Shown piece by piece: positions 55,970 to 64,000 of a stretch of DNA of 64,000 bases. Position 1 is the first letter of the stretch; every line of letters begins with the position of its first letter. Where the stretch lies: NCBI RefSeq assembly GCF_051903065.1, contig NZ_CP178438.1; one strand, written 5' to 3'. Under the pieces are notes generated by a model that saw nothing but the letters and a program-made list of their open reading frames with translations, had not been told where the DNA came from and ran no database searches. The translations under genes were made by a program, and so were the position numbers. Origin of the DNA: Escherichia coli (GTDB lineage: Bacteria; Pseudomonadota; Gammaproteobacteria; Enterobacterales; Enterobacteriaceae).

Positions 55970-56677
55970 ATGAAACCCGTCGTGCTGGTGGTGGATGATG
56001 ACACGGCTATCTGCGCACTGTTGCAGGACGTGTTAAGTGAACATGTCTTTACGGTTTCAGTCTGCCATACCGGACAGGAGGCCATATTGCGTATTGAGGG
56101 CGATCCTGACATTGCGCTGGTGGTGCTGGATATGATGCTACCCGATACCAACGGCCTGAGAGTATTGCAGCAAATCCAGAAACTGCGTCCGACATTGCCG
56201 GTGGTGATGTTGACCGGCATGGGCAGTGAGTCTGATGTGGTGGTCGGGCTGGAAATGGGCGCGGATGATTACATCTGCAAACCGTTCACCCCGCGGGTGG
56301 TGGTCGCACGACTGAAAGCGGTGTTGCGACGGGTTGGTGCGCTGGCGGTTAATGACGAGAAAAGCGCCGGGCTGTCATTCAATGGCTGGTATCTCGATAC
56401 CATGCGCTGCCAGTTGCACAATCCGCTTCAGCAACATGTCGAGTTAACTCAGGGCGAATATGGCTTGTTACTGGCTCTGGCGCAAAACGCGCGTCGGGTA
56501 TTGAGCCGCGAGCAGTTGCTGGCGTTCACCCACAGCGACAGCGTGGAGGTGTTTGATCGCACCATCGACGTATTAATCATGCGCTTACGACGCAAAATCG
56601 AACTCAACCCGCATCAGCCGATGTTGATTAAAACTCTGCGCGGTCTGGGGTATGTCTTCGCTGCCGACGTGCATTAA
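55970..56677 (+). CDS. OmpR/PhoB-family response regulator
   Basis: 235 aa; receiver domain (VVDDD...D at ~55 aa...K) plus winged-helix C-terminus (...TLRGLGYVF); GGAG RBS 8 nt upstream; not present at this position in K-12. Confidence 0.85.
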   Translation: MKPVVLVVDDDTAICALLQDVLSEHVFTVSVCHTGQEAILRIEGDPDIALVVLDMMLPDTNGLRVLQQIQKLRPTLPVVMLTGMGSESDVVVGLEMGADDYICKPFTPRVVVARLKAVLRRVGALAVNDEKSAGLSFNGWYLDTMRCQLHNPLQQHVELTQGEYGLLLALAQNARRVLSREQLLAFTHSDSVEVFDRTIDVLIMRLRRKIELNPHQPMLIKTLRGLGYVFAADVH

Positions 56678-57675
56678 TCCGACATTTCTGTTTGCAGCTC
56701 TTCCAGCGTTTTCGCCCCGTCGATGGCATTGGCGCATAACAGGCTTGCCCGCGCGCAGGCGTGTGCCAGTTTGATGCTCTCGGTAAGCGTCCAGCGTTCA
56801 TGGCAGCCATATAAAAATCCGGCACAAAATGCATCGCCCGCGCCGACGCTGCCGATAATTTCCCGTTGTTCTAACTTTTGCGAAGGGATCCACACGCCGC
56901 CCTGTTCTGGGGTCTCTCCCCACGCCCCTTCCGGGCAGTGGATCACCACCCGCTGGCGCACGCCCGCATCTAACAGTTCACGCGCGGCGGCAGCAATATG
57001 CGCGATATGCGGTTCGCCGTTGGGTAACCGAATTTCCAGCCCGCTAAACTCCCCGGCCTCCAGTTCGTTAATTACCAGATAATCCAGATGGCGCAACGCG
57101 GGCAGCACCAGCGGCTGATAACGCGGATCGCCCTTACGGGAGACCAGGTCGAGTGAGGTTTCAAAGCCAGTATCACGCATTTGCGCCAGCAGGCGTGCGC
57201 TACGGGTGCCGTAAACATCGTCCGGCATATCCAGGCTGTCGAGCAACAGTAAATAGCCGAGATGGAAAATCTTCATGGTGTTATCGAGCTGATCGAACGC
57301 CGGAAGATCCAAAAGTCTGTTTGCACCCGGCGAATGGAAAAACGTCCGCTGCCCGCTTGGGTCTGTCATCACCTGCGACATCGACGTCGGGGCAAAGGTA
57401 GTGCGCTGCACATGCTGACGATTGACGTGATATTGCTCAAGCATCGCCATGATGTAATCGCCGTCGCTGTCCTGACCGATTAGCCCAACCGCCTGTAACG
57501 GCAGCCCGGTGCGCATTTTCGCCAGCGTCAGCAGGACGTTAAGCGGCGCACCGCCGGTGGAGCGTTCGCTGTGGGTGATCTCCGCCAGCCAGCCGCGCTC
57601 TGGCCACTGGATAATCTGATGGACGTGGTCAACCAACATATTGCCTGCGGCGATAATCCCTTTACGCTCCATCAT
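56674..57675 (-). CDS. PfkB-family carbohydrate kinase
   Basis: 333 aa; C-terminal GAGDAFCAGFLYG ribokinase-family signature; start ATG overlaps the aldolase stop (ATGA). Confidence 0.8.
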   Translation of the reverse strand: MMERKGIIAAGNMLVDHVHQIIQWPERGWLAEITHSERSTGGAPLNVLLTLAKMRTGLPLQAVGLIGQDSDGDYIMAMLEQYHVNRQHVQRTTFAPTSMSQVMTDPSGQRTFFHSPGANRLLDLPAFDQLDNTMKIFHLGYLLLLDSLDMPDDVYGTRSARLLAQMRDTGFETSLDLVSRKGDPRYQPLVLPALRHLDYLVINELEAGEFSGLEIRLPNGEPHIAHIAAAARELLDAGVRQRVVIHCPEGAWGETPEQGGVWIPSQKLEQREIIGSVGAGDAFCAGFLYGCHERWTLTESIKLAHACARASLLCANAIDGAKTLEELQTEMSD

Positions 57676-58532
57676 GCCTGCCCCGCACTGCCAAAAATAC
57701 GCATCTGTTGTGCAACCGTATCGCTGATGGCGGCTTCCACTGCCAGCAGTAACTCGGCAAACTCGTCATACATCGGCTGACGGTGCGCCATTCGGGCCTC
57801 AACGGCAGCCAGCGCCGCTTGCGACATGCCAGTGTAGAAATTGATTTTGTGGATACCCAGTTCGATGGCGCGGCGGAAATCGGCATCGCTAATCCCTGAG
57901 CCGCCGTGTAATACCAGCGGGATAGCAGCCTGCTGGCGGATAGCGTTGAGGCGCGGGAAATCGAGTTTCGGTTCGCCGCGATATTTGCCGTGTGCATTGC
58001 CAATCGCCACGGCCAACGCGTCAATGCCGGTACGGTCGACAAAATCACGCGCCAGTTGCGGATCGGTAAACAGGGATTCATCGGCATGGCCATAGAGTGC
58101 ACCGCCTTCGTCGCCACCCACCGCGCCCAGTTCAGCTTCTACCGATACGCCAACGGCATGGCACATTTTCACCACTTCCCGCGTCTGGCGGACATTTTCT
58201 TCATACCCCAGCGTGGAGCCATCAAACATTACCGAGCTGAATCCCAGCCGCAACGCTTGCACCACCGATTCAAAATGCAGTCCGTGATCGAGATTTAACA
58301 CCACCGGAATGGCATGACGCGCCGCTTCAAATTTCACTGTCTCGACCAGGGAATCCAGCGAGATATATTTAAAATGTACTTCGGCAATGTTGATAATAAA
58401 GGGCGAACGTTCTTGTCTGGCAGCAGCAAACAAGGCGCGTAAAAAGTGCGAGTCCAGCACATTAAACGCACCTAACGAATAGTGATGTTCGCGGGCATGT
58501 GCCAGCCCTTCAGCGAGAGAAATCAATGGCAT
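57672..58532 (-). CDS. Class II (metal-dependent) ketose-bisphosphate aldolase family protein (FbaA/GatY/KbaY-like)
   Basis: 286 aa; HGGSG motif and conserved His residues of class II aldolases. Confidence 0.8.
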   Translation of the reverse strand: MPLISLAEGLAHAREHHYSLGAFNVLDSHFLRALFAAARQERSPFIINIAEVHFKYISLDSLVETVKFEAARHAIPVVLNLDHGLHFESVVQALRLGFSSVMFDGSTLGYEENVRQTREVVKMCHAVGVSVEAELGAVGGDEGGALYGHADESLFTDPQLARDFVDRTGIDALAVAIGNAHGKYRGEPKLDFPRLNAIRQQAAIPLVLHGGSGISDADFRRAIELGIHKINFYTGMSQAALAAVEARMAHRQPMYDEFAELLLAVEAAISDTVAQQMRIFGSAGQA

Positions 58533-62736: not shown

Positions 62737-62849
62737 GGTGGACTCCTGCGAGGTTGTCGATATCAGCACTCCATCACAGGAAAGTAAATGCAAAATGTCA
62801 GAAGCCGTTCATATTTGTCATATTGCGATTTTTCTTCACGGAGCGTGAT

Positions 62850-64000
62850 ATGGCGCACCCCGGACGTCATTTTTTTGCCAGCGCGCGCGGGCGATTGCTG
62901 CTTTTGAATTTGCTGGTGGTGGCGGTGACGTTGATGGTCAGCGGCGTGGCGGTAATGGGCTTTCGTCATGCCAGCCAGATGCAGGAGCTGGTGCAGCAGC
63001 AAACGGTGGATGATATGACCGGCAGCCTGAATCTGGCGCGCGACACGGCAAACGTGGCAACGGCGGCGGTGCGATTGTCGCAGGTGGTGGGAGCGCTGGA
63101 ATATAAAGGCGAAGCCGAGCGGTTGCAGGAGACACAGCGGGCATTAAAAAGCTCGCTTGCACAACTGGCGAACGCGCCTTTAGCGCAGCAGGAAGCCGGG
63201 CTGGTGACGCGCATCATCACGCGTAGCAACGAACTGCAAACCAGCGTCGGTGGAATGCTGGAGCGCGGGCAAAGGCGGCATCTGGAGCGCAACGCGCTGT
63301 TAAGTTCGCTATATCAAAACTTAAGTTATCTGCGGCATCTGCAAAAAGTCACTCACGCGCAAGATGATATTTTGCTTAACGAGATGAACCGACTGATTGT
63401 TGCCGCTATTGCCACCCCCGCGCCGCAGGCGATTATTCATCAACTGGTCGGGGTAATGTCTGCGTTGCCGACCCACAGCGATACGCCATTGGTTAATACG
63501 TTACTCAATGATTTCAATGATGAAATGCGTAAACTCGCGCCGCTTTCTGCCGCTCTGGAGCAAAGCGATCTGGCAATCAGCTGGTATATGTTTCACATCA
63601 AAGCGCTGGTGGCGATCCTCAATGGCGACATCAACCGTTACGCCGAACAGGTGGCGACGCTCTCCGGTCAGCGTGTGGCGCAAAGTTACCAGGATTTGCG
63701 CTCCGGCGAGAGGGTGATCATGATTTTCGCCCTGTTAGCGGTGGTGATCACCGCGTTTGCCGGCTGGTATATCTATCGCAACCTCGGCACTAACCTGACG
63801 GCGATTTCCCGCGCCATGAGCCGCCTGGCGCACGGCGAAGCGGACGTCACTTTTCCGGCGTTACAGCGGCGTGATGAGTTGGGTGAACTGGCGCGCGCCT
63901 TTAACGTTTTTGCCCGCAATACCGAGTCACTCGAACGAACCTCACGGCTGCTAAAAGAGAAGACCACGCAGATGGAGATTGCCCAAACTGAGCGGCAGGG
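62850..64000 (+). CDS. Sensor histidine kinase (3'-truncated by window end): TM1, ~250-aa periplasmic domain, TM2, HAMP
   Basis: Frame open from the ATG at 62850 (GGAG RBS) to the window end; absent from the ORF track because no stop is reached; hydrophobic segments at residues ~15-37 and ~290-312, then HAMP-like ...RDELGELARAFNVFARN. Confidence 0.75.
   Translation, partial: MAHPGRHFFASARGRLLLLNLLVVAVTLMVSGVAVMGFRHASQMQELVQQQTVDDMTGSLNLARDTANVATAAVRLSQVVGALEYKGEAERLQETQRALKSSLAQLANAPLAQQEAGLVTRIITRSNELQTSVGGMLERGQRRHLERNALLSSLYQNLSYLRHLQKVTHAQDDILLNEMNRLIVAAIATPAPQAIIHQLVGVMSALPTHSDTPLVNTLLNDFNDEMRKLAPLSAALEQSDLAISWYMFHIKALVAILNGDINRYAEQVATLSGQRVAQSYQDLRSGERVIMIFALLAVVITAFAGWYIYRNLGTNLTAISRAMSRLAHGEADVTFPALQRRDELGELARAFNVFARNTESLERTSRLLKEKTTQMEIAQTERQ

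Follow-up and report, generated by a model that had tools for sequence, protein, structure and literature searches.

The final 8 kb of the window, by which we mean the whole 64,000-nucleotide stretch of Escherichia coli contig NZ_CP178438.1 that was analyzed, very probably belong to an E. coli OI-167-type island that carries the LmvK/LmvR (RbfS/RbfR) two-component system, the lyxose/mannose operon lmuXYZIAK and its regulatory circuit. The eight genes found here are a regulator gene and a hybrid histidine kinase gene, both on the plus strand, which bracket a six-gene operon on the minus strand. The kinase gene (lmvK, 62850..64000) leaves the window at codon 383, and the full gene of 753 codons was taken from locus L001, an E. 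coli chromosome that matches positions 55700-64000 almost exactly (15324 bits) and whose kinase segment is identical to that of the window. At the DNA level the kinase gene shares 99.0% identity with ECs_5074 of E. coli O157:H7 Sakai (749/756 residues at the protein level), and the regulator is 100% identical to the Sakai ECs_5067 protein. The same eight genes occur in the same order in Sakai, between yjcS and yjdP, with proteins that are 98-100% identical. This pair has been published as RbfS/RbfR (Liu et al., PNAS 2022, PMC9860305) and as LmvK/LmvR, in which case the genes between were named lmuKAIZYX and assigned to island OI-167 of strain EDL933 (Yang et al., mBio 2023, PMC10128022); a 2024 review handles both names as one riboflavin- and mannose-sensing system. 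The split system and its operon are already described, and finding them in a genome scan is a rediscovery, not the discovery of a new system. What is new here is the predicted TorS-type, helical bimodular (HBM) fold of the sensor, the absence of an HPt domain, conservation across at least 15 genera, and a wider distribution in E. coli than has been published.

An earlier note on this DNA had placed the regulator and the kinase about 6 kb apart on the same strand, around a transporter operon that they presumably control. The interval between the end of the regulator gene and the start of the kinase gene is 6172 bp, and the central inference is correct, because the footprinted repeat of the published promoter is present at 62809-62823 and experiments in EDL933 bear out the control. 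In that strain lmuKAIZYX is a single transcript induced by mannose and lyxose, lmvK and lmvR are required for the induction by mannose, and mutants in lmvK, lmvR, lmuI or lmuZYX grow poorly on lyxose (PMC10128022). LmvR binds the lmuX promoter according to electrophoretic mobility shift assay, DNase I footprint and ChIP-seq, and its footprint from -41 to -62 holds the repeat ATATGA-N3-ATATGA (PMC10128022). Function needs His410 of LmvK, which is His407 in the window allele, and Asp54 of LmvR (PMC10128022). The EDL933 kinase autophosphorylates, and the purified protein hands its phosphate to LmvR in vitro.

In the window, the LmvR binding site (62809-62823, minus strand) is an exact match to the footprinted repeat of the published lmuX promoter. 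It reads TCATAT-N3-TCATAT on the plus strand (TCATATTTGTCATAT) and ATATGA-N3-ATATGA on the strand of lmuX, lies 27 bp ahead of the start codon of the kinase gene, and is the sole perfect copy in the window. The box and the block next to it (GTAAATGCAAAATGTCAGAAGCCGTTCATATTTGTCATA; conserved promoter block 62784..62824, minus strand) hardly vary, and stand at a fixed spacing from the start of lmuX, in 76 loci that represent at least 15 genera; this is a clear phylogenetic footprint. Among the published sites of the regulator, only the lmuX box has cross-genus conservation. The box (CCGTTCATAT) also resembles the tor box (CTGTTCATAT). A tor-box search of the window alone returned 2 matches against 2.9 expected, which is not significant, so the meaning of the LmvR box comes only from its position, the published footprint and its conservation. 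A second LmvR box upstream of lmvR was not found in E. coli, and a search of the window for the published RbfR site of the ler promoter (TCTCACATAATTTATATCATT) gave no match with as many as three mismatches allowed. The earlier note had named control of unrelated genes by the regulator as a result that would tell against its proposal, and LmvR does also control ler and the locus of enterocyte effacement (LEE), lacI, ompF and others; ler is activated by LmvR in LEE-positive strains.

The complete LmvK has 753 residues (L001 16151-18412). Hydropathy places two membrane segments at residues ~16-38 and ~288-309, and the 250 residues between them contain 14.4% Leu, 12.4% Ala and 9.2% Gln, in agreement with the Leu/Ala/Gln-rich periplasmic segment of about 250 residues that had been described between two transmembrane helices. 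The earlier note had also asked for the full kinase and its domain annotation. Pfam detects a HAMP domain (residues 309-358, 63774..63923, plus strand; PF00672, E 4e-9), HisKA (399-458), HATPase_c (501-616) and a receiver (640-749), but neither an HPt domain nor any match for residues 39-287. The C-terminal receiver is complete (Asp689), and the protein stops 4 residues beyond it. For the cytoplasmic core (residues 376-750) the best sequence models are PRK13557, CckA and VirA-like kinases, all far under their cut-offs. No conserved HPt gene or other extra gene flanks the cluster in other genomes, where the conserved neighbors are fdhF, yjdP and the phn genes. The lack of an HPt in the protein or in a conserved gene nearby, the direct transfer in vitro and the VirA-like core matches together point to a receiver that, as in VirA, is likelier to tune the kinase than to form an obligatory relay step.

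Relatives of LmvK fall into two length classes. Kinases of 753-773 residues are found in Escherichia, Citrobacter, Leclercia, Enterobacter and Lelliottia, while those of 849-871 residues, found in Kosakonia, Raoultella, Buttiauxella, Cedecea, Atlantibacter and distant relatives (the loci compared include L021, L043, L065, L076, L083 and L087), carry a cytoplasmic PAS_7 domain between HAMP and the phospho-acceptor helix. The extra length does not come from an HPt, and the shorter kinase of E. coli seems to have arisen by a deletion. At a smaller scale, the O157:H7 kinase (L002 10001-12271), the allele of both published studies, has a 9-bp tandem duplication that adds 'FND' after residue 224 in the periplasmic sensor. 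This duplication is present neither in the window allele nor in any other genus, and it could affect what the studied kinase senses. Other differences of the O157 kinase from the window allele are E359A, V502I, S556C and L606Q.

The periplasmic sensor domain (residues 39-287, 62964..63710, plus strand) was modeled with AlphaFold from an alignment of 17 sequences that range from near-identical down to 20% identity. The model is confident and all-helical, with no strands (pLDDT, the predicted local distance difference test, 85.5; pTM, the predicted template modeling score, 0.68). In a Foldseek search against the PDB, the top match of the model was the sensor domain of Vibrio TorS (3I9Y, E 8e-4, TM-score 0.70 on the target), and the next were PilJ, TorS-TorT complexes and McpS, with McpS and PilJ almost as close. 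The sensor of LmvK is predicted to be an HBM domain, that is, a TorS-like double four-helix bundle. Sequence searches of the domain against solved structures, by the single sequence or by the 17-sequence profile of the family, gave no meaningful match and did not recover TorS, so the likeness is one of predicted structure and not of sequence. The earlier note had likened the segment to sensors of the TorS/TorT or LuxQ/LuxP type, and the Foldseek result upholds the TorS part at the level of fold. The LuxQ/LuxP analogy was rejected, since the model of the LmvK sensor is entirely helical, whereas the periplasmic domain of LuxQ is a tandem PAS-like structure of mixed alpha/beta composition. The predicted fold is compatible with either sensing mode and does not settle between them: in TorS the ligand is perceived by way of TorT, whereas organic acids (malate, succinate and acetate) are bound by McpS directly. 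LmvK would then have its fold in common with one direct small-molecule sensor, a type of match that the earlier note had named as telling against its proposal. Conserved polar residues in the sensor alignment are Arg75, Gln78, Glu84, Tyr85, Glu88, Arg143 and His144.

Several known systems share parts of this arrangement. The binding protein of the operon, LmuZ (lmuZ, 59285-60226, minus strand), is an RbsB-like (CUT2) periplasmic sugar-binding protein that matches PDB 4RWE at E 4e-167, ribose-binding proteins at E 1e-30 to 1e-47, and the models for TorT and ChvE weakly. TorS/TorT/TorR is alike in its OmpR-type partner regulator, in TorT, which like LmuZ is RbsB-like, and in the double four-helix-bundle periplasmic domain that is predicted for LmvK. 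It differs in that there is no detectable sequence similarity between the sensor domains, and in that LmvK is without the C-terminal HPt of the four-step phosphorelay; against the curated TorS models LmvK scores 135 bits (cut-off 676.5) and 82.5 bits (cut-off 982). TorT also serves sensing only and has no transporter of its own, whereas LmuZ is the binding component of a complete ATP-binding cassette (ABC) importer. VirA/ChvE/VirG resembles the system in a hybrid kinase that ends in a receiver and has no HPt, and in an OmpR-family regulator. VirA-like and VirG models are among the best matches, yet under cut-off (217 versus 647 bits and 180 versus 344 bits), and the kinase match covers residues 376-750 only. 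ChvE serves an ABC sugar importer and also brings sugars to VirA, which is the logic proposed here for LmuZ; VirA has a phenol-sensing linker that LmvK is without. The HBM domains of McpS and PilJ share the fold predicted for LmvK at a sequence identity of merely 8-13%, but these proteins are chemoreceptors and not kinases, and McpS takes its ligands directly. For XylFII-LytS-YesN of Clostridium beijerinckii the match is limited to a single four-helix bundle of ~120 residues, the kinase (LytS) and the regulator are of other classes, and XylFII is itself no transport component.

How the sugar is perceived can be explained in different ways. That sugar-loaded LmuZ docks on the periplasmic domain of LmvK, so that the kinase reads D-mannose and D-lyxose only through LmuZ, a development of the suggestion in the earlier note that the binding protein could double as sensing partner, is plausible, although we hold it at somewhat less than an even chance. 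The predicted fold is closest to that of TorS, whose structure was solved in complex with TorT, and LmuZ is in the RbsB-like class with TorT and ChvE (weak model matches) and with the fused sugar sensor 2X7X; LuxP and XylFII are binding proteins of this class as well, and neutral sugars are usually read through binding proteins and not helical bundles. The lmuZ gene adjoins the kinase in every examined locus that has kinase-upstream sequence, also where a locus is reduced to regulator, lmuZYX and kinase, and LmuZ is unusually conserved across genera (91-97% identity; kinase 74-81%, regulator 70-79%). A fused AlphaFold model of the two partners (mature LmuZ, a 30-residue linker and LmvK 38-288; 21 paired rows) gave no sign of a fixed arrangement, with a pLDDT of 74.6 and a pTM of 0.51 as for two independently folded domains, but this is a weak test, run at 1:1 and not 2:2, with no control and a shallow alignment. 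At locus L083 the binding protein is 84% and the sensor 36% identical, so that matched change is not evident, and no TorT-like orphan binding protein was seen, each one being part of a complete transporter. In mice, a deletion of the operon with lmuZ included colonized like wild type, even without manA, while lmvK and lmvR deletions were outcompeted. The kinase can therefore do without LmuZ as an activator in the mouse setting, and that the operon deletion does not mimic the kinase deletion in vivo would suit a sensor that needs no binding protein.

Such direct sensing, with D-mannose, D-lyxose and/or riboflavin bound by the HBM domain of LmvK and LmuZ used for transport only, is a possibility that we hold tentatively and rank a little below docking. 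Riboflavin increased the autophosphorylation of the purified kinase in vitro with no binding protein present (PMC9860305), a response that favors direct sensing and tells against a kinase that reads its signal only through LmuZ. The conserved polar cluster would suit a pocket, as it may lie near the junction of the two modules, a placement made by counting helix lengths only. On the other side, no four-helix-bundle sensor is known to bind a neutral monosaccharide directly. It is distinctly unlikely that LmvK instead senses the activity or conformation of LmuXYZ in the membrane, or a cytoplasmic product of uptake. In every genus the cluster does keep kinase, regulator and complete transporter as its invariant core, and the PAS domain of the longer relatives could read an internal signal, but the E. 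coli kinase has no PAS domain, and a well-conserved periplasmic domain of 250 residues would be superfluous. Docking and direct binding could also coexist: LmuZ would feed the importer and, when loaded with D-lyxose or D-mannose, dock on one module of the sensor, while the other module takes a cue such as riboflavin, a combination that we regard as rather doubtful.

In the mechanism that we propose, the sugar signal would be read in the periplasm by the predicted TorS-like HBM domain of LmvK and would then pass through the second transmembrane helix and HAMP to the kinase core. Phosphate would move from LmvK to LmvR, with the C-terminal receiver modulating this step rather than acting as an obligatory relay. 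As shown in EDL933, whose proteins are 99-100% identical, LmvR on the direct repeat just upstream of the -35 region of lmuX activates the operon in the presence of D-mannose or D-lyxose; LmuXYZ imports the aldose, LmuI converts it to the ketose, and LmuK and LmuA would have their proposed roles in the pathway. Purified LmuK is a fructokinase, and the pathway roles of LmuK and LmuA have been proposed in the same study, in which both were dispensable for growth on lyxose (PMC10128022).

Several points in the literature and in the strain itself weigh against this account. The two primary papers disagree on the signal, which is riboflavin in one (PMC9860305) and mannose in the other (PMC10128022), and they give different sites in the ler promoter (TCTCACATAATTTATATCATT in PMC9860305, ATTTTA-N3-ATTAGA in PMC10128022). 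They contain no ligand-binding experiment on the periplasmic domain of LmvK. In mannose medium, LEE expression was changed by loss of lmvR and unchanged by loss of lmvK (PMC10128022), so the kinase is not the sole route to LmvR activity. An unknown Hpt is drawn in the mBio model (PMC10128022), so transfer in vivo may not be direct. The strain of the window may also be LEE-free, and the virulence branch would then not necessarily concern it. The periplasmic domain and a part for the binding protein in sensing go unmentioned in both primary papers (PMC9860305, PMC10128022).

The same arrangement is found well beyond E. coli. One genome per species was scanned with nine closer sensor sequences, which gave 152 sensor relatives, and the best 80 of these 152 loci were analyzed; they come from Citrobacter, Leclercia, Silvania, Enterobacter, Kosakonia, Lelliottia, Phytobacter, Pseudescherichia, Raoultella, Franconibacter, Buttiauxella, Cedecea, Atlantibacter and others. 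The layout of regulator, opposite-strand operon and kinase is retained throughout; it recurs in ~60 loci, which represent at least 15 genera within the Enterobacteriaceae, and the split is thus not due to chance. Some loci retain the regulator, lmuZYX and the kinase without lmuK, lmuA and lmuI (Raoultella L043, L044, L046 and L068, and also L053 and L058), and Cedecea is without lmuK and lmuA only (loci without these two genes are L076, L077 and L081). As the catabolic genes are lost in some genera, the invariant core is the two-component system with a complete transporter. Among more distant relatives, locus L083 (36% sensor identity) has genes for an FGGY kinase, a binding protein, a permease and an ATPase, all of them oriented divergently to the sensor kinase gene, and locus L087 (26% sensor identity) has genes for PfkB, aldolase, lyxose isomerase, ROK kinase, regulator, transporter and kinase. 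The xylulokinase-like FGGY kinase at L083 fits D-lyxose, used via D-xylulose, as a possible ancestral substrate.

In E. coli, the boundaries of the island were set by blastn of locus L001 against MG1655. Homology to K-12 ends at window position 55900 and restarts at L001 position 18497 within yjdP, which places the left junction with the backbone of K-12 at 55900/55901; the part within the window is 55901..64000 (strand not assigned), and the island continues ~1.2 kb beyond the window end. The island stands in place of alsK-alsE-alsC-alsA-alsB-alsR-rpiB of MG1655; the replacement of the allose genes and the insertion site between yjcS and yjdP have likewise been stated (PMC10128022). In both papers the system is presented as all but confined to, or strongly linked with, enterohemorrhagic E. 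coli (EHEC), O157:H7, O145:H28 and O55:H7 (PMC9860305, PMC10128022). We found the kinase gene in 410 of 5426 complete E. coli genomes, always chromosomal and in single copy, and the carriers include isolates from meat, human faeces, pigs, chickens, baboon, guinea fowl and goat as well as an O169:H41 strain. Non-O157 strains (from meat, human faeces, pigs and chickens) match the window at 99.5-100%. The cluster has the appearance of a syntenic sugar locus long present in enterobacteria, with which the allose genes alternate in E. coli, and not of an EHEC invention. In at least 40 loci of other genera, the cluster lies between fdhF and yjdP-phnP-phnN-phnM, the same neighborhood as in E. coli, where mdtPON, ytcA and yjcS stand between fdhF and the island.

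Other elements in the regulatory regions differ among genera. An element CGTCA-N4-TGACGTG(T/A)CGAA occurs roughly 100-150 nt upstream of lmvR in 40 of 63 loci (L005-L082), and its version in Citrobacter, GTCATATTTGAC, resembles half an LmvR box; it may be an autoregulatory site. The element is absent in E. coli, where the junction at 55900/55901 leaves 69 bp of island DNA before lmvR, adjoining AT-rich sequence of the yjcS side. Between lmuX and the kinase gene, the intergenic region is 120-260 bp in many genera (L014-L082), compared with 113 bp here. These longer regions have a conserved GAATAGTTAAC-N5-7-(G/A)TCACA just past the LmvR box, which is absent in Escherichia, Citrobacter and Pseudescherichia. 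In a consensus scan of the window for promoters and terminators, sites were no more frequent than in shuffled sequence, the two intergenic regions had none, and no terminator-like site was found between the convergent lmvR and lmuK.

The regulator gene lmvR (55970-56677, plus strand) encodes an OmpR-family response regulator with NCBIfam matches to OmpR, VirG, PhoB and TorR, all under cut-off. An in-frame ATG is also present at 55952; with the RefSeq start at 55970 the phospho-acceptor is Asp54, in agreement with the published numbering. The gene converges with lmuK (56674-57675, minus strand), which encodes the PfkB-family sugar kinase whose fructokinase activity was reported by enzyme assay (PMC10128022). 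As the earlier note had it, the two genes overlap by 4 bp at their 3' ends, where their stop codons share the palindrome TTAA (56674-56677). This overlap is specific to Escherichia, and tens of bases part the two genes in Citrobacter and other genera. The remaining catabolic genes, also on the minus strand, are lmuA (57672-58532), encoding a class II ketose 1,6-bisphosphate aldolase (NCBIfam NF005284, 577 bits versus a cut-off of 406), and lmuI (58547-59230), encoding a D-lyxose/D-mannose isomerase (NCBIfam NF051472, 439 bits versus a cut-off of 350; PDB match at E 6e-160). The transporter is completed by the ABC permease gene lmuY (60245-61219, minus strand), which matches the NCBIfam ribose and allose permease models under cut-off, and by lmuX (61216-62736, minus strand), the first gene of the operon, for an ABC ATPase with two nucleotide-binding domains. 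Its RefSeq start is the ATG at 62736; extension of the open reading frame to an in-frame TTG at 62793 would run into the conserved promoter block.

The wide carriage of the cluster and its shared neighborhood across genera suggest that its original role was probably sugar use and that control of LEE was added later. What remains of interest is the perception step, the two competing published ligands and a distribution broader than reported. Identification of the sensor as a predicted TorS/HBM-type domain makes the question of the ligand experimentally concrete. If docking of LmuZ on one module and a second cue on the other proved to be true, LmvK would be a two-input sensor, an HPt-less hybrid kinase with VirA/ChvE-like logic that is widespread in the Enterobacteriaceae, and both published ligands would be reconciled.

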